Below are positions 4,291-13,626 of a stretch of 32,000 nt of DNA, in pieces. The position numbers and the translations under genes were made by a program. How positions within the stretch are numbered: position 1 is the stretch's first letter; every line of letters starts with the position of its first letter. Under the pieces are notes generated by a model. It searched no databases. It worked only from the letters and a program-made list of their open reading frames with translations, and had not been told where the DNA came from. Origin of the DNA: Okeania sp. (lineage in GTDB: Bacteria > Cyanobacteriota > Cyanobacteriia > Cyanobacteriales > Microcoleaceae); contig NZ_JAYKGW010000090.1 of assembly GCF_035285525.1 (NCBI RefSeq), positions 1 through 32,000 on the forward strand, in the 5' to 3' direction.

Positions 4291-5469
4291 TTAACGAGAA
4301 GCTTTTCCTAACAATAATAACGCTACTCCAAGACCGATAAAATTTGGTAGCCATCCAGCCAAAAAAGGAGTTAAAACTTCTTTTTGCCCCATTGCTCCTG
4401 TCATAAAAGAAAGTAAATAATAGGTAAAAATAATTATCACACTAATACCAAAGCTAGTACCTCGATTAGAATTTCTATGAGGTCTAACTCCTAAAGACGC
4501 TCCTACCAAACCCATTACTAAACACACAAATGGTAAAGCCAATTTTTGTTGAATCCTAACCTGAGTTTTCACAACTTTTCGATAATTTCCACTGAGTCGC
4601 ATTAACTCTAAATACTCATAAGATTGAGCAATATTCATTTGTGTATAAGTACGTTTTTTTCCTGCTAAATCTAAAGGCGCTCTAGAAAGCTTTAATTGCT
4701 GATGGTCAAACTTAACAATATTACGATATGAACCATCTGAAGATACCAAATAAATAGTACCATTAAACAAATCCCAAATATTTTTTGTTGGATTCCAAGT
4801 TGCTGATTCAGAAGATACAATTTGCTCAACTCCATACTTAGAACGGTCTAAAATAGTTATACCTTTCATGTATTTACCATCAAACTTTTCGGCATAAAAT
4901 AACCGAGTAAGTGTATCATCTCGACTACCATCTGGTCGTCTAACTTTGCCAAATTCTGGGTAGAATATATTTTCCTCTTTGAAAGGAGGGTTGTCTTGCT
5001 CCAAAGTTTTTTCTAAGATGAGAGAGCTTTGATAGTTAGCATTAGGTACAATTACCTCATTGAGAGCAAAGGTCAAACCAGTTGCCATTAAACTAACTAT
5101 AACTGCCGGTATAATTATTCGCGATACACTAACACCACAGCTACGGAGAGCAACTATCTCACTATTACTAGACATCTCACTGTAAACCATCAGAGTGGCC
5201 AGTATCATTGCCATAGGTAATGCTAAAGCAATAAATTCTGGCATTTTTAAGAGAAATACTTGGATGGCAATGGAAATAGGTAGTCCAGATTCTGTAACTT
5301 TTCGGACTAACTCAAACATTGCTCCGACTGTGACACCAATAGATGAAAATAATCCGACACCAAAAATGAAAGGCCCAATTAATTCTGTGATGATGTAGCG
5401 ATCCATGACAGAAATTGTTGGTCCAAATATTGGGAGGGGAGATAAGGATTTTGAGGTAGTACGCTCCAT
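4291..5469 (-). CDS. LptF/LptG (YjgP/YjgQ) family permease
   Basis: MDRYIITELIGPFIFGVGLFSS...FELVRKV...LLKMPEFIALALPMAMILATLMVYSEMSSNSEIVALRSCGVS is the typical family N-terminus. A periplasmic middle domain and C-terminal TM helices follow. An alternative start is the ATG at 5406 (MDRYI). Confidence 0.85.
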   Translation of the reverse strand: MERTTSKSLSPLPIFGPTISVMDRYIITELIGPFIFGVGLFSSIGVTVGAMFELVRKVTESGLPISIAIQVFLLKMPEFIALALPMAMILATLMVYSEMSSNSEIVALRSCGVSVSRIIIPAVIVSLMATGLTFALNEVIVPNANYQSSLILEKTLEQDNPPFKEENIFYPEFGKVRRPDGSRDDTLTRLFYAEKFDGKYMKGITILDRSKYGVEQIVSSESATWNPTKNIWDLFNGTIYLVSSDGSYRNIVKFDHQQLKLSRAPLDLAGKKRTYTQMNIAQSYEYLELMRLSGNYRKVVKTQVRIQQKLALPFVCLVMGLVGASLGVRPHRNSNRGTSFGISVIIIFTYYLLSFMTGAMGQKEVLTPFLAGWLPNFIGLGVALLLLGKASR

Positions 5470-5568
5470 ATTCTTTAGATTTAGGGTTGAATCTACAATT
5501 GCAGAATTGACTATTAGTTAGCTTTTAATTCTATCCTTTATTAAATATATGTTTGAGGATGTTATTTA

Positions 5569-5664
5569 AGGTTAGCTTAATTTCAATCCTATGTTTCTAG
5601 TACAATGGTGCTTAAAACTAGGTTGCAATAGTTTTATATATATAGTACCTTTGCGTAAGTCCTG
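5569..5664. mobile_element. Degenerate copy of the CAGGACTTACGC MITE family
   Basis: The right half, GGTGCTTAAAACTAGG...TATAGTACCTTTGCGTAAGTCCTG, matches the copies at 25901 and 26259. The left end is eroded. Confidence 0.4.
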
Positions 5665-5852
5665 TTTATATTAAATCTGCTATAATTATGAGAAATAACT
5701 ATTCAAAAAAATGATTACTGAAATTATAAATATCAAAAAATTAAACAGTGATCGCCTTACCATTCTATCAAGTCCGCTAGCATCAGTTTTATTCAGCATT
5801 TACAGCCAAGTAGCGATAGCACATCCGTTCCGTTTCGCGATCGCTTCTTTTC

Positions 5853-6098
5853 ATGCTTATTGATGTTTAATTCATCTATTGACCAATAGTAATTAAATGG
5901 GAAATACAATCAAATTTTGCGATCAATTACCACAAAAATACCAAGCAAATCCATTATTTATGAGATTTTGATCAATCCAAGGAAAGTAGGGATATAAGCT
6001 CTGTTCGGCTTTGCCACACACTATTTACGCAACCACTCATTGTCATCTTATTGATGTATGATTCATCTATTGGCCAATAGTAATTAAATGGGAAATTA
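5853..6098. repeat. Two copies of a ~55-bp sequence (5853-5907, 6044-6098) containing a CTATTGRCCAATAG palindrome
   Basis: CTTATTGATGT(T/A)T(A/G)ATTCATCTATTG(A/G)CCAATAGTAATTAAATGGGAAAT occurs twice, 191 bp apart. The palindromes sit at 5876-5889 and 6067-6080. Confidence 0.8.
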
Positions 6099-6110
6099 CA
6101 GTAATGAGTG

Positions 6111-6156
6111 GTAACACAACCTTCCAAGTTATTACAGCAAACGAAGGCTGTGTTAC
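6111..6156. repeat. Palindromic element related to the hairpin at 186-230
   Basis: GTAACACAACCTTC (6111-6124) pairs with GAAGGCTGTGTTAC (6143-6156). The GTAACACAACC/GGCTGTGTTAC ends match those at 186-230. Confidence 0.7.
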
Positions 6157-6230
6157 TCTGGATAGAGATTAATCTTCAACTGTACTTCACTATGCTCAAA
6201 AGTGCGGTAAGTTCAACTATCATTAATACA

Positions 6231-6320
6231 CAGGACTTAGCGATTAACGCTATGGGCAGGGTGTGTTAGCGCCAGTGAACGCGCCAATAGTCTATATGTA
6301 GTGCCTTAACGTAAGTCCTG
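6231..6320. mobile_element. MITE-like element, CAGGACTTA...TAAGTCCTG family (variant core)
   Basis: CAGGACTTAGCGATTAACGCTATGGG...GTGCCTTAACGTAAGTCCTG. The core is related to the copy at 30979-31134. Confidence 0.65.
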
Positions 6321-6454
6321 ATACAAAAAGACGGCATAGATAATTTAGTTATCTAAAGATGACTTAAGCTAAAAGCCCACGGATTTCAATGCTTGGCGAG
6401 AATAGTTAGGAAAAACAGGAAACTGGGGAATTATAGAGAGGATAGTCAGAAGAA

Positions 6455-6483
6455 TTGTCCCTTAATTTTTCTGCCATTATTCT
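6455..6483 (+). promoter_or_regulatory. Candidate sigma70-type promoter of HEAT cassette 1
   Basis: TTGTCC (6455-6460), a 17-nt spacer, then TATTCT (6478-6483). This lies inside a ~100-bp leader (6400-6499) conserved upstream of cassette 2. The SD GAGGAGG is at 6489-6495. Confidence 0.3.
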
Positions 6484-6499
6484 GGTTTGAGGAGGAAGT

Positions 6500-8404
6500 A
6501 TGAACCCTACTACTATTCAAATAGCACTAGCTGCTGTATTGGCGACAAAAGCTTTGGAAAAAACAGGAGAAAATATTGATGAGGTAGTCTGGAATCAAAG
6601 TGCTAAATTTATAGAATCTCTGAAACAACAATCTCCAAATACTGTAACTGCCATTGAAAAATCATCAGAGCAACCTTTAAATTATCGTCAGGTGGTTTTG
6701 CAAATTCTGGGAGCAGTAACTAATCGTAATGTAGCTCAGACAATACAGGAGTTAGCAGCAGCAGTAGAAGAAAATCCTCATCCTAAAATCAATCAAGTTT
6801 TACAAGAAATAGAAAAAATACTAAATTTTCAGCAGCAAACAAAAGCACAGTTGTATAGTCAGTTAGTAGAAGAGTTTTATCACTCTCAAAGCGATCGCTT
6901 TCCCATTCACAAAACTAGGCGACAGGAATTAGAAAAAGCTTTGGGTGAACTAGCAAAACAAAATATTGACTCTAATAGCGATCGCTCCCCATTACAGAAA
7001 AATTTGATTGAGCAAATATTGGGAGTTGCTGATGATGAAAATTCTTTATTTGATGTAGCATTGCAAATTGGTTGGCTAAATAATGTGCAGGTAGCAGCAG
7101 GTTCACCCACAGAAAAAGTCTATGCTTTTTTTCATCCCAGGTTTGAAGAATATTTTGCTGCCATAGCGATCAATAATTGCAATTTTTTCTTCCCTCCCCC
7201 AGAGAATAATAAACCTGTAAAACTTGAACGTTATCGAATTTTTCAGCCACAGTGGAAACAAGTGATTTTGCTGTGGTTAGGGAGAGAGGATTTGGAGGAG
7301 GAAAAGAAAGAAGAATTTATTAAAGCTTTAACCAAGTTTAAGGATAGATATGGAGACTTTTTGATTCAAACCGGAAAAAAAATTTATACATATCAGGCTT
7401 ATTTTCTAGCTGCTGCTGGAGTTGTTGAATTTCCCCAATGCAGCCAAACTGATAAAATAGTGAACACAGTAGTTTATTGGGCATGCAATCATAGGTTAAA
7501 GGAAATAGAAACAAAAGCTCAAAGGATTTTACTAGAAACTCCCAGAAAAAAAACTATCAATGCTTTAGTCAAATTGTTGGGGTACACTTCTGATAATAAG
7601 ACTCGCACTCAAGCAGCAGAAAGCTTAGGCAAAATTGGCACCGGAAATGAATATGCAATTGATAGTTTGGTAAATTTGTTACAGTCTACCCCCAATCGTT
7701 GGACTCGCAACCAAGTAGCAGAAAGCTTAGGCAAAATTGGCACCGGAAATGAAAAAGCTATTAATAGTTTAGTGTATTTATTGAAATCTACCTTTGATGA
7801 TACTCGCAGGAAAGCAGCAGAGACCCTAGGAAAAATTGATCCTGGCAATCAAAAAGCGATTGATAGTTTAGTGCAATTATTGGAGTCTACTTCTAATAAT
7901 CAGATTCGCAGACAAGCAGCAGAAACCCTAGGAAAAATCGATCCCGGAAATCAAAAAGCGATTGATAGTTTAGTACAATTATTGGAGTCTACTTCTGATG
8001 ATAAAACTCGCAGACAAGCAGCATATAGCTTAGAGAAAATTGGCATGGGCAATGAGAAAGCAATTGATGGTTTACTACAATTATTAGAGTCTACTTCTGA
8101 TGATTCTACTCGCTTGATAACAACCTATAGTTTAGGGAAAATTGGTATCGGTAATCAGAAAGCCATTGATAGTTTAGCAAATTTATTAAAGTCTAGTTCT
8201 GATAAGTATATTCGCTGGGGAGTAGGAGAATCTTTAAGAAAAATTGACCCTGGTAATCAAACAGCAATAGATAGTTTTGCGTATTTACCGGGGTCTACTT
8301 CTGATCATACTGGCTTTCGAGCCAAAAAACATCGTTGGTTATTTTTATTGCTATGCTTTTTGTTAGGAATAGCCCTAGTCTTGACACTTCCTTTAATCTT
8401 TTAA
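6500..8404 (+). CDS. HEAT-repeat protein: N-terminal helical module, NACHT-like C-terminal remnant without a P-loop, about 7.5 HEAT-like repeats, hydrophobic C-terminal tail
   Basis: 634-codon ORF behind a strong SD. VYAFFHPRFEEYFAA followed by YRIFQPQWKQVILLWLGRED resembles the post-NTPase region of cyanobacterial NACHT proteins (from memory). I see no GxxxxGK[ST]. The 34-aa units AIDSLVxLLxSTSDxxTRxxAAExLGKIGxGNxK run from about 7556 to 8290. The last 22 aa are hydrophobic. Confidence 0.85.
   Translation: MNPTTIQIALAAVLATKALEKTGENIDEVVWNQSAKFIESLKQQSPNTVTAIEKSSEQPLNYRQVVLQILGAVTNRNVAQTIQELAAAVEENPHPKINQVLQEIEKILNFQQQTKAQLYSQLVEEFYHSQSDRFPIHKTRRQELEKALGELAKQNIDSNSDRSPLQKNLIEQILGVADDENSLFDVALQIGWLNNVQVAAGSPTEKVYAFFHPRFEEYFAAIAINNCNFFFPPPENNKPVKLERYRIFQPQWKQVILLWLGREDLEEEKKEEFIKALTKFKDRYGDFLIQTGKKIYTYQAYFLAAAGVVEFPQCSQTDKIVNTVVYWACNHRLKEIETKAQRILLETPRKKTINALVKLLGYTSDNKTRTQAAESLGKIGTGNEYAIDSLVNLLQSTPNRWTRNQVAESLGKIGTGNEKAINSLVYLLKSTFDDTRRKAAETLGKIDPGNQKAIDSLVQLLESTSNNQIRRQAAETLGKIDPGNQKAIDSLVQLLESTSDDKTRRQAAYSLEKIGMGNEKAIDGLLQLLESTSDDSTRLITTYSLGKIGIGNQKAIDSLANLLKSSSDKYIRWGVGESLRKIDPGNQTAIDSFAYLPGSTSDHTGFRAKKHRWLFLLLCFLLGIALVLTLPLIF
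7556..8290 (+). repeat. In-frame 102-bp (34-codon) tandem repeat, about 7 units
   Basis: GCnATTGATAGTTTAGTnCAATTATTGGAGTCTACTTCTGAT... recurs with a 102-bp period. One unit is 33 codons. Confidence 0.9.
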
Positions 8405-8528
8405 CAAAAAATGCTATTCAAAAAGTTGAAAAATACTCAAAAAGAATAGTTAGCAAAAATGGGGAATTTGGAAATTTAGGAATTTCAGAATTATAATTGG
8501 GGGATTATCGAAAAGGTAGTCAGAAGAA

Positions 8529-8557
8529 TTGTCCCTTGATTTTTCTGTAATTATTAA
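8529..8557 (+). promoter_or_regulatory. Candidate sigma70-type promoter of HEAT cassette 2
   Basis: TTGTCC (8529-8534), a 17-nt spacer, then TATTAA (8552-8557). The leader 8444-8572 is paralogous to 6400-6499. The SD AGGAGG is at 8563-8568. Confidence 0.3.
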
Positions 8558-8572
8558 ATTCTAGGAGGAAAT

Positions 8573-11500
8573 ATGGATTCTACTACTATTGCAATAGCCC
8601 TATCTGCTGTATTGGGGACAAAAGCTGGGGAAAAAACCGGAGAAAATATTGGGGAGGAACTTTGGGACAAAAGCGTTAAATTTCTGGAATCTCTCAAACA
8701 AAAATCTCCCGATATTTTAACTGCTATTGAACAAGTTTCAGAGCAGCCTTTAGATTACGGTGAGAAGGTTTTGGAAATGCAGAAAGGAGTAGCTAATCCT
8801 GATGTCGCCAAGACAATGCAAGAATTAGCAATAGCAGTAGAAGAAAATCCTCATCCGATAATCATTGATGGTATCGTGCAATTGTTAGGGTCTACTTCTA
8901 ATGATAATACTCGCACTCTAGCAGCAGAAAGCTTAGGGAAAATTGGTAAAGGCAATAAGTACGCAATTGATAGTTTGGTACATTTGCTGGGATCTACTTC
9001 TAATTATTTGACTCCCAGGAAAGCAATATATAGCTTAGAGAAAATTGGCATGGGGAATAAGTATGCCATTGATAGCTTGGTAAATTTATTGGGGTCTACT
9101 TCTAATGATAATACTCGCTTGATCGCAGTATATAGTTTAGAGAAAATTGGCATGGACAATAAGTATGCCATTGATAGTTTGATAAATTTGTTGAAGTCTA
9201 CTTCTGATGATAATACTCGCAGAAAAGTAGCATTAAGCTTAGGAACAATTGCTATAGGTAACAAGTATGCCATTGATAGTTTGGTAGATTTATTGAAGTC
9301 TACTTCTGATGATAATACTCGCTTGATCGCAGTACATAGCTTAGAGAAAATTGGCAAGAGCGACCAGTATGCAATTGATAGTTTGGTGCATTTATTGGAG
9401 TCTACTTCTGATAATTTAACTCGCAGAAGAGCAGCAAAAATTTTAGGAAAAATTGACCCCGGCAATCAAAAAGCCATTGATAGTTTGATAGATTTGTTGC
9501 AGTCTACTTCTGATCGTGAGACTTGCATAGAAGCAGCAGAAACTCTAGGGAAAGTTGGCACAGGCAATCAAAAAGCCATTGATAGTTTGGTAGATTTGTT
9601 GCAGTTTACTTTTGATGATGATACTTCCAGGGAAGCAGCAGACAGTCTAGGGAAAATTGGTTGGGGCAATAAATCTGCAATTGATGGTTTAGTGCAATTA
9701 TTGATATCTACTTCTGATGATTATACTCGCACTATAGCAGCAGAAAACTTAGGGAAAATTGGCACAGGCAATCGGAAAGCCATTAATAGTATGGTGCAAT
9801 TATTGAGGTCTACTTCTGATGATTATACTCGCACTATAGCAGCAGAAACTCTAGAGAAAATTGGCTGGGGGAATAAGTATGCAATTGATGGTTTGGTGCA
9901 ATTGTTGGGTTCTACTATTGATGATGATACTCGCACTATAGCAACAGAAACCCTAGAGAAAATTGGCATGGGTAATCAAAAAGCCATTGATGATTTGATG
10001 CCTCAGTTGGAGTCTAATTCTGATAATTCTACTCCCACTATAAAAGCAAAAAACTCAGGGAAAATTACCACCAGCAATGAGAAAGCCATTGATGATTTAG
10101 TAAATTTATTGGGTTCTACTTCTGATAACTATACTCGCTTGCGAGCAGCAGAAACTCTAGAGAAAATTGGCATGGGTAATGAATATGTAATTGATGGTTT
10201 AGTGCAATTATTAAGATCTACTTTTGATGATAATACTCGGACTCTAGCAGCAGAAACTCTAGAGAAAATTGGCATGGGTAATGAGTATGCAATTGATGGT
10301 TTAGTGCAATTATTGAGGTCTACTTCTGATAATTCTACTTGCACTATAGCAACAAAAACTCTAGAAAAAATTGGCATGGGTAATGAGTATGCAATTGATG
10401 GTTTAGTGAAATTATTGAGGTCTACTTCTGATGATTATATTGGCACTATAGCAGCAGAAACTATCAAGAAAATTGGCATGGGCAATGAGTATGCAATTGA
10501 TGGTTTAGTGAAATTATTGAAGTCTACTTCTGAGAATAAGACTTGTTGGCGAGCTGCAGAAACTCTAGGGAAAATTAGCATGGGCAATCAAAAAGCCATT
10601 GATGGTTTCGTGCAATTTTTGGTGTCTAACTCTACTCTTTGGATTCGCAGGAAAGTACCAGAAACCATAGAGAAAATTGGCATAGGTAATCAGAAAGCAA
10701 TTAATGGTTTGGTGCAATTATTGGAGTCTACTTCTGACAAGAATACTCGCTGGCGAGCAACAGAAACCTTAGAGAAAATTGGCAGGGGAAATCAGAAAGC
10801 TATTGATGGTTTAGTGCAATTATTAGGAACTACTTCTGATGATTATCTGCGCACTATAGTATCAGAAATCATCAAGAAAATTGGCAGGGGAAATCAGCAA
10901 GCTATTGATAGTTTAGTTCAATTATTGGGGTCTACTTCTGATTATTTTACTCGCATTATAACAGCAGAAATTCTTGAGAAAATTGGCAGGGGAAATCAGA
11001 AAACTATTGATATTTTTCTAAAATTGTTAGCATCTAGTTCTGATAAAAATACTCGCACTTTAGCAGCACAAACCCTAGAAAAAATTGGCAGGGGAAATCA
11101 GGAAGCAATTGATAGTTTGCTGCAATTATTAGGCTCTACTTCTGATAAGTATACTCGGACTACAGCAGCAGAAACCCTGGAGAAAATTGGCAGTGGAAAT
11201 CAGAGAGCAATTGATAGTTTAGCACATTTATTGAAGTCTACTTCTAGTGATAGTTTAGCAGATTTATTAGAGTCTACTTCTGATGATTTAACTCGCTCAA
11301 TAGCGGCAAAAAGCTTGGAGAAAATTAGTACAGGCAATCAAAAAGCTATTGATAGTTTGGCAGATTTATTGCAGTCTACTTCTGATTATTCTACTCGCTC
11401 GATAGCAGCAGAAACTTTAGAAAAAATCGGCATAGGCAATCAAAAAGCTATTGATAGTTTGGTGCATTTATTGGAGTCTACTTCTGATTATTTTACTCGC

Positions 11501-11800
11501 TCGATAGCAGCAGAAACTTTAGAAAAAATTGGCATAGGCAATCAAAAAGCTATTGATGATTTAGTACATTTATTGAGGTCTACTGCTGATGATTATACTC
11601 GCTTGATAGCATCAGAAACTCTAGAAAAAATTGGCTGGGGAAATCAGAAAGCTATTGATGGTTTTGTACAATTGTTGGCGTCTACTTCTGATGACAAAAC
11701 TCGCTGGAAAGCAGCAAAAAGGTTGGATAAAATTAGCATGAGCAATCAAAAAGCTATTGATGATTTAGTACATTTGTTGGGGTCTACTATTGTTCCTTGA
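8573..11800 (+). CDS. Giant HEAT-repeat protein: the same N-terminal helical module fused directly to about 29 HEAT-like repeats
   Basis: 1075-codon ORF behind a strong SD. Residues 1-95 are about 64 percent identical to gene 1 by hand alignment (61/95). At ENPHP|IIIDGIVQLLGSTS the protein enters the repeat array and stays in it to the stop codon. Confidence 0.85.
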   Translation: MDSTTIAIALSAVLGTKAGEKTGENIGEELWDKSVKFLESLKQKSPDILTAIEQVSEQPLDYGEKVLEMQKGVANPDVAKTMQELAIAVEENPHPIIIDGIVQLLGSTSNDNTRTLAAESLGKIGKGNKYAIDSLVHLLGSTSNYLTPRKAIYSLEKIGMGNKYAIDSLVNLLGSTSNDNTRLIAVYSLEKIGMDNKYAIDSLINLLKSTSDDNTRRKVALSLGTIAIGNKYAIDSLVDLLKSTSDDNTRLIAVHSLEKIGKSDQYAIDSLVHLLESTSDNLTRRRAAKILGKIDPGNQKAIDSLIDLLQSTSDRETCIEAAETLGKVGTGNQKAIDSLVDLLQFTFDDDTSREAADSLGKIGWGNKSAIDGLVQLLISTSDDYTRTIAAENLGKIGTGNRKAINSMVQLLRSTSDDYTRTIAAETLEKIGWGNKYAIDGLVQLLGSTIDDDTRTIATETLEKIGMGNQKAIDDLMPQLESNSDNSTPTIKAKNSGKITTSNEKAIDDLVNLLGSTSDNYTRLRAAETLEKIGMGNEYVIDGLVQLLRSTFDDNTRTLAAETLEKIGMGNEYAIDGLVQLLRSTSDNSTCTIATKTLEKIGMGNEYAIDGLVKLLRSTSDDYIGTIAAETIKKIGMGNEYAIDGLVKLLKSTSENKTCWRAAETLGKISMGNQKAIDGFVQFLVSNSTLWIRRKVPETIEKIGIGNQKAINGLVQLLESTSDKNTRWRATETLEKIGRGNQKAIDGLVQLLGTTSDDYLRTIVSEIIKKIGRGNQQAIDSLVQLLGSTSDYFTRIITAEILEKIGRGNQKTIDIFLKLLASSSDKNTRTLAAQTLEKIGRGNQEAIDSLLQLLGSTSDKYTRTTAAETLEKIGSGNQRAIDSLAHLLKSTSSDSLADLLESTSDDLTRSIAAKSLEKISTGNQKAIDSLADLLQSTSDYSTRSIAAETLEKIGIGNQKAIDSLVHLLESTSDYFTRSIAAETLEKIGIGNQKAIDDLVHLLRSTADDYTRLIASETLEKIGWGNQKAIDGFVQLLASTSDDKTRWKAAKRLDKISMSNQKAIDDLVHLLGSTIVP
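8858..11797 (+). repeat. In-frame 102-bp tandem array: 28 full units plus 2 partial units
   Basis: My segmentation of the translation gives 28 units of 34 aa, one 13-aa partial unit and a 15-aa terminal partial unit (95+952+13+15=1075). Neighbouring units reach about 94 percent DNA identity, e.g. 11345-11446 vs 11447-11548. Confidence 0.9.
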
Positions 11801-11818
11801 TTTTGCTGCAATTATTCA
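11790..11818 (+). promoter_or_regulatory. Orphan third copy of the cassette promoter/leader motif, overlapping the gene 2 stop codon
   Basis: TTGTTC, a 17-nt spacer, then TATTCA. The context ATTGTTCCTTGATTTTGCTGCAATTATT parallels ATTGTCCCTTGATTTTTCTGTAATTATT at 8528-8555. No SD, ATG or N-module follows. Confidence 0.3.
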
Positions 11819-12563
11819 GTGCTACCCACCTATCAGTTCCCAAAAAAAAGTATTAGGATATTAATAAAATTAAAATTATTTACAACCAATAGTTTTGGGT
11901 TTAGCTCATAGCTGAAAGCTAAACCATTAAGGTTATAAATTATATTTATGACGTTGGGCTTCAGCAAATTCATCAAAAGAACTAAATATATTCTTGATAA
12001 TTTAATGTTGTTTATTTTAACATAGTGGGCTTCTTCAATTACTAAAATTCAAAAAGATAGTACAATTTAAAATTAAGCTTTGGCTGGAAAATTGGCGCTT
12101 GGTAGTGGATAGAAAAGCTGGTATTCTGACTTTAGCAATGGATAATTAATAATTAATAATTGATAATGAATTAAAATACTAAACTTTGTAATAAACTCTT
12201 TTTTTAGAGAAGAAAAATGTAATCTTTTTTTTAATCTAATACAAAAGTTTTTCAACTAAATAATTATTCATTATCAATTATCTATAGATGCTTTGATATT
12301 TATTCAGAAAGCCCTAGCTATGTTCAGGCGATCGCTTTTTTCCAGTTTTCAAGTTCAAAAAGACTTAGAGATTTTGTTAAAGCAATTTATCCTAATTCTA
12401 TTAAAGCTAAATAAGTTGGATGTTTGAAAGAATTTTTTCTAAAACTTTCTATCACCTTCTATTTCTCATGCTCAGAACCAAACTTTTTTTCTGTTGTGCT
12501 AATAAGATCTTTTGCTAATCGCTCGCTAAATCCCACCACAAAAGACAAAGAAAATAGAGACAT

Positions 12564-13454
12564 TCATCTTTGCTCTTGTCTCGTTTCATTATCAAGTTCG
12601 CCAAAAGTAATAGGAATAATTCTTCCCTGTAAAACAGCAAAGATTAAAATACCAAATGTACCTCCGATTAGAGGCTTATAAAAACCAACTAAGATAGGAA
12701 TTATAGAGTCTTGATACTGATAATCTTCTTCAGATTGTTGATAATTACTCAGTCTAGATAAGATACTAATTATGCTACCTATAGCACCAGCAGTAAAACA
12801 CAAGTCGCCTAACCAAACTGTCATTTTAAAATCGTTTATATACATATCTGGCGAGTCATTTGTTCTGCTAGAAATATCTGATGAAAGAATTCCTTTTGAC
12901 TCTAGAAAAATTTCTAAATTATCGCTTCCCGACAATAAACCTAGAGGAGTAAGAATATAAAATGGAATTCCTATAATTAACCCTAGTAAAATTTTCAGAA
13001 TAATCTTAGAGGTAACTTTTCGATAAAAATTAATAGGTAAAGCTAGCCAAAAATTTTTAATTCTTCTGATTCTAAATTCTCCATCTATTCGCAGTCTTTT
13101 AATCAGCAGTATTTGAGGATTATGCTGAAAAGATTGAATGGCAATCTTAAGATTCAATAGTAAATTAGCTACTTCTGATTTTTTGTGAATATTTTTAATT
13201 AATTTTCCAGATAGATATAGAGTTTTGATATCTAAGAGTAATATCAAAATTTTAGAAACTTCTTCTTGATTTTCTTCACTTAATTCCTGGATAAAATTAG
13301 GGTCGGTAATTAGTTCATTGATTTGGGCTAATAAATCATATACTTGGGTATCTATTTCATCAATAACCTGAAGATAATGTTGTGCCTCGGAAACTGGCTT
13401 TTTTTCCGAATAATTTAATTCAGAATTATTAAAATCATGTTTTGGCTGAATCAT
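12564..13454 (-). CDS. Hypothetical membrane protein: helical N-terminal half and three C-terminal TM segments
   Basis: The ORF track gives 12564-13469 from a TTG start. The first ATG (MIQPKHDF) is at 13454. Predicted TM segments are ILKILLGLIIGIPFYILTPLGLL, VWLGDLCFTAGAIGSIISILSRL and IIPILVGFYKPLIGGTFGILIFAVL. I recognise no family. Confidence 0.6.
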   Translation of the reverse strand: MIQPKHDFNNSELNYSEKKPVSEAQHYLQVIDEIDTQVYDLLAQINELITDPNFIQELSEENQEEVSKILILLLDIKTLYLSGKLIKNIHKKSEVANLLLNLKIAIQSFQHNPQILLIKRLRIDGEFRIRRIKNFWLALPINFYRKVTSKIILKILLGLIIGIPFYILTPLGLLSGSDNLEIFLESKGILSSDISSRTNDSPDMYINDFKMTVWLGDLCFTAGAIGSIISILSRLSNYQQSEEDYQYQDSIIPILVGFYKPLIGGTFGILIFAVLQGRIIPITFGELDNETRQEQR

Positions 13455-13626
13455 ATTTATATATAGCAATCCTATTTTATTCGTGTCAAAAATCTTACTA
13501 CTTTTTCGGGAACAAGTAAGAGTTACGGTTCCCGATAAATCAGTTTTTTTATCTACTTTTTGATTTGTCGCAACCTAATTTAGGGTTGCGATAAAGGGGT
13601 GGATTAACTTCCCCTCCTGGGAGGGG

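Follow-up and report, generated by a model that had tools for sequence, protein, structure and literature searches.

Tandem Bell–HEAT genes of an Okeania genome, probable fusions of a putative membrane executioner with an NLR sensor that lack the NTPase switch

A central nucleoside triphosphatase (NTPase) is thought to be required for switching and oligomerisation in the NLR and STAND immune receptors of animals, plants, fungi and bacteria. Here we describe two adjacent genes of Okeania sp. that seem to derive from such receptors with this part taken out. The window analysed is a stretch of 32,000 nucleotides (contig NZ_JAYKGW010000090.1, positions 1 to 32,000 of the forward strand). Gene 1 lies at 6500–8404 and gene 2 at 8573–11800, both on the plus strand, and they encode proteins of 634 and 1075 amino acids (aa). 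Gene 1 corresponds to WP_324236216.1, and its sole label in the source annotation is "HEAT repeat domain-containing protein". Comparisons of sequences and structure models led us to a probability of about 0.9 that both genes are tandem members of the Bell/NLR cassette family of filamentous cyanobacteria, and that they are old in-frame fusions kept by selection.

The closest described systems are the Bell/NLR pairs (Dyrka et al. 2020, bioRxiv 10.1101/2020.01.06.895854). The Bell domain is helical and about 100 aa long, with a hydrophobic first helix and an acidic residue at position 2–3. Bell proteins of 120–140 aa are encoded collinearly with NLR genes of multicellular bacteria, and their C-terminal amyloid signalling motif is mirrored at the NLR N-terminus, in the families BASS1-10 (bioRxiv 10.1101/2020.01.06.895854). 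In the canonical route as currently pictured, the NTPase brings about oligomerisation of the NLR, whose N-terminal amyloid motif then folds and templates the Bell tail, by which helix 1 is freed for the membrane (bioRxiv 10.1101/2020.01.06.895854; 10.1101/2024.11.07.622273). The family of the window genes shares with these pairs the Bell features, homologs with BASS5 pairs, a small gene immediately upstream of a NACHT NLR and the occurrence in filamentous cyanobacteria. Unlike them, the window genes are fused, and they have lost the amyloid tail together with its counterpart on the NLR side and all of the NACHT domain. Their repeats are of the HEAT type, whereas TPR and WD repeats were emphasised by Dyrka et al., who left Bell proteins longer than 200 aa out of the analysis (bioRxiv 10.1101/2020.01.06.895854).

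A second related system is Bab/Agp of E. coli ECOR25 (bioRxiv 10.1101/2024.11.07.622273), in which the "Babybell" MEPIS effector works under a TPR sensor without a STAND NTPase. In this preprint the Bell-type protein, whose N-terminus was named "MEPIS", executes abortive infection, and activation goes with membrane alteration and cell death. Bab and Agp are, however, separate proteins coupled by BASS11, and Agp has GreA/B-C and PIN domains; in the window, the fusion is covalent and has no amyloid motif. The all-in-one NLRs (Avast2/Avs2, bNACHT02/11/23) resemble our genes in having a Bell-like N-terminus and C-terminal sensor repeats on one polypeptide. They keep a central NACHT/STAND NTPase, which drives oligomerisation, whereas genes 1 and 2 have none.

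More distant parallels are found in eukaryotes. In HET-S/NWD2 and MLKL (HeLo/4HB superfamily), a helical membrane executioner is restrained by an attached regulatory module, and in MLKL the executioner domain is gated without an NTPase switch. The window proteins gave no detectable sequence match and no significant structural match to these (Foldseek E>=1), and the place of their pseudokinase or prion-forming domain is taken here by a HEAT array. Truncated NLR derivatives of plants and animals (RPW8/CC-only, TIR-only, CARD-only/PYD-only) lack the nucleotide-binding oligomerisation domain (NOD), are retained, and often act as regulators or helpers. They usually keep the signalling domain only, whereas the window genes keep it attached to the sensor repeats, only the NOD module having been excised. 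Bell/BASS/NLR pairs, Bab/Agp and MEPIS all-in-one NLRs are known already. Conserved fusions that, as their sequences indicate, have excised NOD and amyloid motif and keep executioner and sensor together appear to be new, and our full-text search returned no description of NTPase-less Bell–HEAT proteins in the literature searched.

The two proteins were claimed to share an N-terminal module in the original prediction, a reading of this same stretch, and they are indeed 64% identical across the first 96 aa. The module had been taken for the N-terminal domain of a STAND protein; in this family it proved instead to correspond to the globular portion of Bell, which is encoded by a small gene of its own upstream. 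A profile search found 27 close relatives in one database; in a representative library of 1.84 billion proteins it returned 205 clusters. Nearly all relatives among the 150 clusters listed were standalone proteins of 70–220 aa (complete ones typically 130–170), none of them with a family annotation. A scan of GTDB species genomes gave 131 loci with the module. In most of the 80 loci examined, the small open reading frame (ORF) was followed within 0–400 bp by a large ORF with Walker A on the same strand. The tail of the small protein and the N-terminus of the downstream NTPase shared a motif of 20–30 aa in 21 of the 60 testable pairs (z>=4 vs shuffles). These paired motifs, including …KLADKIGQVVMPGGTGNI, ILAMPNLEKLADKIGQVVMPGGTGNI / KFADKIGAFAAPG..VNI and EKLADKIGMVVMSGGTGTINTMN, match the BASS5 Bell/NLR pairs of Table S2 in bioRxiv 10.1101/2020.01.06.895854.

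The features of the module itself pointed in the same direction. Its family starts with MEPITI, MDPITI or MEPLTT, and 58 of 78 free Bell forms have D/E at position 2–3, nearly all others having E at 4 (MILETAAI/MIFETAAI) or a mis-set start. The start of gene 2, MDSTTI, fits the MEPIS-type motif; gene 1 begins with MNPTTI, a hydrophobic helix with no acidic residue. An AlphaFold2 model of gene 1 aa 1–114 was confident (predicted local distance difference test 92, predicted template modelling score 0.86), with six helices at 3–22, 28–44, 46–53, 62–72, 76–91 and, as linker, 95–113. It thus has the helical fold of Bell, and the same elements recur in the model of full-length gene 1. All residues invariant in the Bell family are kept in genes 1 and 2. 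Since the family start motifs, the confident helical-bundle model and the loci with BASS5 pairs agree, we identify the N-module, by homology to loci carrying the published pairs and by the defining features common to both, as a Bell domain, a putative membrane-targeting death effector coupled to the NLR by paired BASS motifs. In gene 1 the domain (aa 1–95) and its linker helix (aa 96–112) occupy 6500–6835, as delimited by the small standalone homologs and the model; in gene 2 (aa 1–95) it occupies 8573–8857, as placed by alignments to the Bell family. The short protein directly upstream of an NLR is the gene context of the homologs, with the window genes as fused exceptions, and the BASS tail is present in relatives and deleted from genes 1 and 2. 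Pfam, NCBIfam and PADLOC contain no Bell model, and neither the N-module by itself nor a complete small Bell protein gave anything significant when scanned against them; PADLOC matches of the full proteins are due to the HEAT repeats alone. In sequence searches of the PDB, neither the Bell profile nor the N-terminal half of the Dapis NLR returned a match.

These surveys bear directly on the idea that the N-module is an N-terminal adaptor or effector of full-length STAND paralogs, with which the window proteins would pair by homotypic N-module contacts. The module is common to both genes and conserved, fusions of it to an NTPase do exist with dynamin-like GTPases (P0140, P0152, P0191), and rare "all-in-one" Bell–NLR proteins have been reported (bioRxiv 10.1101/2020.01.06.895854). 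However, the full-length paralogs expected under this idea did not appear. No single Bell–NACHT polypeptide was present among the 150 listed of 205 clusters or in the 80 loci, the dynamin fusions being all that was found in their place, and the module is normally a separate small protein. The idea is largely refuted for this subfamily, and we consider it very unlikely. The canonical partner arrangement, judged from these loci, is a two-gene pair.

Downstream of the Bell domain, the sequences bore out the predicted repeats and the predicted loss of the NTPase. A period of 102 bp, equal to the 34-aa HEAT-like unit, was detected in both genes by Tandem Repeats Finder, with about 6.8 copies at 7586–8277 in gene 1 and about 28 (28–29) at 8864–11788 in gene 2. 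Pfam HEAT_2 matched with E=9e-49 for gene 1 and 1e-139 for gene 2, and HEAT_PBS matched both. From Pfam, the repeat finder and dissection of the repeats, the array of gene 1 (7 repeats) was placed at 7535–8293 and that of gene 2 (about 29 repeats, truncated at the 3' end) at 8858–11797. A C-terminal superstructure-forming repeat array, the sensor feature of STAND proteins, is present in both, and the STAND-defining P-loop NTPase core (PF05729) is absent from both. Neither protein gave a Pfam NACHT or AAA match, and the middle of gene 1 alone gave none at E<=10. Walker A and hhhhD[DE] (Walker B) patterns were found in neither protein, and tblastn with a related NACHT domain across the whole window revealed no NACHT remnant.

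Gene 1 was said to retain only sequence from behind the NTPase, and this is what the alignments gave. Its residues 113–345 (6836–7534) are 49% identical to residues 313–545 of the NACHT–HEAT protein of Dapis, whose Pfam NACHT domain lies before this stretch, at aa 86–240. BLAST alignments of gene 1 with many cyanobacterial NACHT proteins started sharply at residue 113/114, just past the NTPase core. This helical/winged-helix region includes the post-NACHT motif F-H-x-x-F-x-E-Y-(F/L)-A-A as YAFFHPRFEEYFAA; the module is absent from gene 2. There, the predicted direct join ENPHP-IIIDGIVQLL was confirmed, the N-module running straight onto a HEAT repeat at codons 95/96 (NPHP-IIIDG). We refer to the architecture of gene 1 as type B and to that of gene 2 as type C. 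In the AlphaFold2 model of full gene 1, the post-NACHT region formed helices and a beta-hairpin, and residues 605–633 a C-terminal helix. Foldseek hits of this model were dominated by HEAT/ARM repeat proteins (alphaRep, Rpn2) and were uninformative on the post-NACHT module.

The arrays also invite the reading that these are ordinary HEAT housekeeping proteins of the phycobilin-lyase/NblB type. The weak NCBIfam matches to CpcE, NblB and CpeY are in line with it, but the scores (CpcE 63 and 167 bits vs a cut-off of 330, NblB 39 vs 300) stem from the repeats alone, and the N-module, the post-NACHT region and the synteny all link the genes to NLR cassettes. We rejected this reading as extremely improbable. 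Per-position entropy showed that the variability of the gene 2 HEAT repeats is concentrated at positions 11, 14, 19, 20, 23, 24, 26–28 and 34 of the unit, a pattern reminiscent of the hypervariable surface with which HEAT repeats of the alphaRep type bind; proteins of this type also gave the best structural matches.

Gene 1 ends in a feature overlooked by the original prediction, a basic-flanked hydrophobic helix of 22 residues (aa 613–634, WLFLLLCFLLGIALVLTLPLIF, preceded by RAKKHR; 8336–8401), which may serve as a membrane tail anchor. The tail recurs in the NCC-H fragment of Dapis, in SIO3I5 (L017), in L085/L086 and in P0089, and it is carried by type B and most type C proteins. A frameshift artefact was rejected as its source: the tail follows NCC-H in Dapis and ends other Okeania proteins of types B and C. 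Gene 2 has no such tail. Its array stops at about 11790 (…LLGSTIVP*), whereas its orthologs end with the tail.

The origin of the fusions could be traced through the chromosomal site. An lptF/lptG permease gene (4291–5469, minus strand, 392 aa; LptF/LptG family permease in the source annotation) served as the synteny anchor. It is 83–84% identical to the lptF/G genes beside Bell cassettes in Hydrocoleum CS-953 (L001), Dapis BLCC M172 (L002), Okeania SIO1I7 (L004), Okeania SIO2B3 (L005) and Okeania SIO3I5 (L017). The order of a 377–383-aa gene, a ~600-aa gene, lptF/G on the minus strand and the cassette is shared by the window, Dapis BLCC M172, SIO1I7 and SIO2B3; in Hydrocoleum CS-953 and SIO3I5, lptF/G lies directly upstream of the cassette in the DNA stretch examined. 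At the same site, Dapis and Hydrocoleum contain a canonical Bell gene (161 aa), a 63-nt spacer and a NACHT–HEAT gene (952 aa in Dapis). The ancestral unit would have comprised a small Bell protein, with its ~95-aa bundle, hydrophobic MEPIS helix, linker and amyloid-forming tail, and a NACHT–HEAT NLR encoded immediately downstream.

Gene 1 matches free Bells up to about residue 112, across the globular domain and the linker helix, and then the Dapis NLR from residue 313. The junction lies at codons 112/113, beyond which gene 1 has QTKAQLYSQLVEEFY where the Dapis NLR has ETKAELYREFVEYFY. This switch implies one in-frame deletion that ran from the Bell tail across the spacer into the NLR gene and took away its N-terminus and all of the NTPase. 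What remained is the winged-helix/helical module, the HEAT repeats and the hydrophobic C-terminal helix. Genes 1 and 2 are, as read from these alignments, in-frame gene–gene fusions from which the amyloid tail of Bell, the NLR N-terminus and the entire P-loop NTPase have been removed. The closest two-gene pairs, from Dapis, Hydrocoleum and Okeania (L001, L002, L008, L010, L012–L014), have Gly/Lys/Ile-rich Bell tails, such as KEIKAEKGGIAIGK…KIDKRTTI and KEIKAEKGGIAIGKNEMGKDGIVGG…KIDKRTTI in the Okeania/Dapis type, for which no counterpart was detected at the NLR N-terminus. In this clade, amyloid signalling between the two proteins may have disappeared or altered already. The site next to lptF/G appears to be a dynamic cassette array. 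In Dapis BLCC M172, the NCC-H domain with its hydrophobic tail was called as a separate 62-aa ORF (L002 13427–13615) after the 952-aa gene, which suggests a frameshift or sequencing error in this canonical reference locus.

The NTPase-less forms were found to be conserved in synteny in relatives, in one genome with the tandem order of the window. Exactly the type B junction is present in SIO1I7 and SIO2B3, which share the synteny and are 61–62% identical to gene 1, and in SIO3B3 and SIO3C4 (P0089/P0270), which are 68% identical and, like gene 1, end in the hydrophobic tail without NCC-H. SIO3I5 (L017, 1180 aa, beside lptF/G) and SIO3B3 (L084+L085) have exactly the type C junction. Put together, two overlapping contigs of SIO3B3 give type B, then type C and then an 85-aa decayed stub of a third Bell. 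The original prediction had allowed for a very recent deletion. This was rejected, since other Okeania genomes have these junctions in proteins that are 57–68% identical, the ratio of nonsynonymous to synonymous substitution rates (dN/dS) is below 1, and the simulation described below is unfavourable to it.

For the close pair SIO1I7 and SIO2B3 (L004 vs L005), dN/dS was 0.10 in the Bell domain, 0.29 in the post-NACHT region and 0.67 in the HEAT array. Values for gene 1 vs L004 (SIO1I7) ranged from 0.37 to 0.58 over the three regions, and those for gene 2 vs L017 (SIO3I5) from 0.47 to 0.66. The dS between gene 1 and L004 (0.27–0.60) is comparable to that of the flanking lptF/G (0.59), which has a dN/dS of 0.15. 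In a neutral simulation restricted to substitutions, a divergence of 5% left a stop-free frame in 0.4% of the replicates for gene 1 and in 0% for gene 2. The real orthologs differ by 16–28% at the nucleotide level with frames intact over 634–1180 codons. Taken with the simulation, this indicates that the fusions arose long ago and that selection has kept their frames open. The claim that the ORFs are no product of simple decay stands accordingly, both (634 and 1075 aa) being too long and too conserved for it.

The genes might nonetheless be non-functional deletion relics of a Bell/NACHT–HEAT cassette, that is, pseudogenes with frames open by chance. The NTPase, normally considered essential to NLR function, is gone, and dN/dS is raised relative to the housekeeping neighbour. 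Products of decay are seen in relatives (the 85-aa Bell stub in SIO3B3/SIO3C4, the split NCC-H ORF in Dapis). The main reason to give this reading weight is gene 2, which is 3'-truncated with unrelated DNA downstream. The identical junctions and intact frames across genomes 16–28% divergent speak against relics, as do an ORF survival below 1% at only 5% neutral divergence, the dN/dS of 0.10–0.29 (Bell, post-NACHT) between L004 and L005, and the conserved ribosome-binding site and leader. We regard the relic reading as improbable.

The DNA past about 11790 is unrelated to the downstream regions of related loci, which hold the hydrophobic tail, an Rce1-like gene and other genes. The next ORF (12564–13469, minus strand, 301 aa) had no Pfam match and no homolog in any related locus examined. 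The 3' end of gene 2 looks like a rearrangement breakpoint.

Genes 1 and 2 lack the canonical coupling devices, namely the NTPase, the NLR N-terminus and the amyloid tail. The mechanism that we favour, at somewhat less than even odds, is a one-piece, ligand-gated sensor–executioner, independent of nucleotide and amyloid, with an MLKL-like logic. A ligand derived from an invader or from a non-self cell would bind to the hypervariable HEAT surface. This event, or the clustering of several proteins on a multimeric ligand, would free or concentrate the Bell domain, whose N-terminal helix would then attack the cytoplasmic membrane. The C-terminal anchor of gene 1 would keep its protein at the membrane. 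The invariant Bell residues, the confidently modelled fold, the few variable repeat positions, the conserved tail and the existence of separate NTPase-less Bell–repeat fusions in Hormoscilla and Nostoc would fit this mechanism, and Bab/Agp, a Bell-type effector driven by an NTPase-less sensor, would lend it support by analogy. That the conserved Bell–HEAT proteins are autonomous one-component immune receptors, their repeats gating a Bell membrane executioner that is possibly membrane-anchored, is a tentative proposal.

Several observations weigh against this interpretation. The acidic residue at position 2–4, kept in essentially all free Bells, is lost in four of six Okeania-type fusions: gene 1 (6500–6517), SIO3I5 (MNPTKI, L017 4526) and both SIO3B3 genes (L084 1470, 3929). 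The type B gene of SIO3B3 has GTA at the canonical start and was annotated with a 37-aa N-terminal extension. The loss of the acidic residue or of the start codon may have altered the killing function. Bell dN/dS is relaxed in the window lineage (0.47–0.62), and gene 2 has lost its 3' end and its anchor. No match between tail and NLR N-terminus motifs was found in the nearest two-gene relatives (Dapis, Hydrocoleum, most Okeania). Membership in the Bell family was established indirectly, through homology to loci with BASS5 pairs and not through a Bell HMM, and when the N-module model was compared with the PDB by Foldseek, no match reached E<1 (best ~1), with Bcl-2, Rx-CC and MLKL at noise level. 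We know of no route by which Bell could be oligomerised without either the NOD module or amyloid templating.

The same origin would also suit a different role, in which the fusions do not kill on their own but modulate canonical Bell and NACHT–HEAT pairs encoded elsewhere. They could act as HEAT-array decoys that soak up ligands or phage inhibitors, or as dominant-negative or priming partners that co-assemble with free Bell through the Bell domain; decoys and regulators were among the options of the original prediction. SIO3B3 and SIO3C4 hold the fusions together with a standalone Bell of 168 aa, which in SIO3B3 lies beside a NACHT gene on the same contig. The lack of every known activation device and the loss of the acidic residue and of one start codon described above are also what a modulator might show, and defence by Avast2 is impaired by mutations in the MEPIS motif region. 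On the other hand, a diversified array of 29 repeats and a membrane anchor seem costly for a simple cap, and in the closest canonical pairs there is no evident amyloid coupling with which a modulator could interfere. A search for NACHT paralogs named none for the window's own metagenome-assembled genome among the best 120 matches. A modulator role is the main alternative, and somewhat less likely than the mechanism that we favour.

Whichever role applies, executioner and sensor modules were joined, both coupling devices were cut out, and the product appears to have been kept by selection in several Okeania lineages. The label "HEAT repeat domain-containing protein" is corrected either way. The genes would amount to a natural experiment on the dispensability of the NLR switch, with a function that is putative. 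If they are autonomous receptors, the nucleotide switch and prion-like templating would be dispensable for NLR-derived cell-death signalling, and repeated NOD excision would be an evolutionary route to new receptors. Active fusions would provide a minimal, experimentally tractable system for the gating of HeLo/Bell-type domains. Should they be regulators, bacteria would have in them a counterpart of the eukaryotic truncated NLR/CARD-only modulators.

Each gene had been described as preceded by a paralogous leader of ~100 bp with a strong GGAGG site. The paralogy is real, but it is confined to a shorter core: 6421–6481 and 8495–8555 are 85% identical, with a local score of 77 vs a maximum of 29 in 500 shuffles. 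The site reads GAGGAGG in gene 1 and TAGGAGG in gene 2, each 5 nt ahead of the ATG. Leader 1 (6421–6499, plus strand) is the native 5' region of a Bell gene, homologous to leader 2 (8495–8572, plus strand) and to the leader in Okeania SIO3I5 (L017), and more weakly to the leaders of Okeania and Dapis Bell genes. An Rfam scan of 5400–12700 gave no match and RNAalifold predicted no conserved base pairs in the leaders, by which a known riboswitch or structured RNA was ruled out. The best sigma-70-like match of the region, TTGGAA-N18-TATAAT (8468–8497, plus strand; 10 of 12 positions of the consensus), lies in leader 2, and gene 2 may have its own promoter there. Promoter and terminator scans of the region showed no enrichment relative to shuffles.

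Other Bell combinations were encountered among the relatives. A Hormoscilla sp. protein (L027 10001–12130, 709 aa) joins Bell with its full tail to HEAT repeats, and a Nostoc sp. P2123 protein (L062 9956–13162, 1068 aa) joins Bell with an intact BASS5, a post-NB-ARC-like region and TPR repeats, both without Walker A. These fusions are independent and have different junctions, so the NOD module seems to have been excised repeatedly. In Okeania sp. SIO3B5 (L031 1595–2722), acidic low-complexity repeats (…ENNEVEQENVEKENILDLDGLEAEEF…) come after Bell over about 270 aa, and Pfam gave no match. In the metagenomic dynamin fusions mentioned above (823–901 aa), a Bell-type N-module is fused N-terminally to a dynamin-family GTPase, with Dynamin_N at ~195–420 and weak similarity to LeoA/LeoBC in PADLOC, which points to a coupling of Bell effectors with dynamin-like defence NTPases as well. 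A strong paired motif, …IHNENKSKLQEKGFINQGVQ in the Bell tail and …IHNQNQGKLQEKGFINQGNQ at the NLR N-terminus (z up to 15), was found at L009 7829–8700 and also in L018 and L019. It is absent from the BASS1-10 table of Dyrka et al. (bioRxiv 10.1101/2020.01.06.895854) and may represent an undescribed amyloid-signalling motif family of Okeania- and Hormoscilla-like cyanobacteria.

The remaining genes of the window are housekeeping genes (lptF/G, fdhF, ndhH, rsmH, queG, accA, folE and others). Between lptF/G and gene 1 lies an intergenic region of 1 kb (5470–6500) with no sizeable ORF on the plus strand. It contains a direct repeat of 50 nt (5856–5905 and 6047–6096, 94% identical) and one of 28 nt (5637–5664 and 6293–6320, 86% identical).

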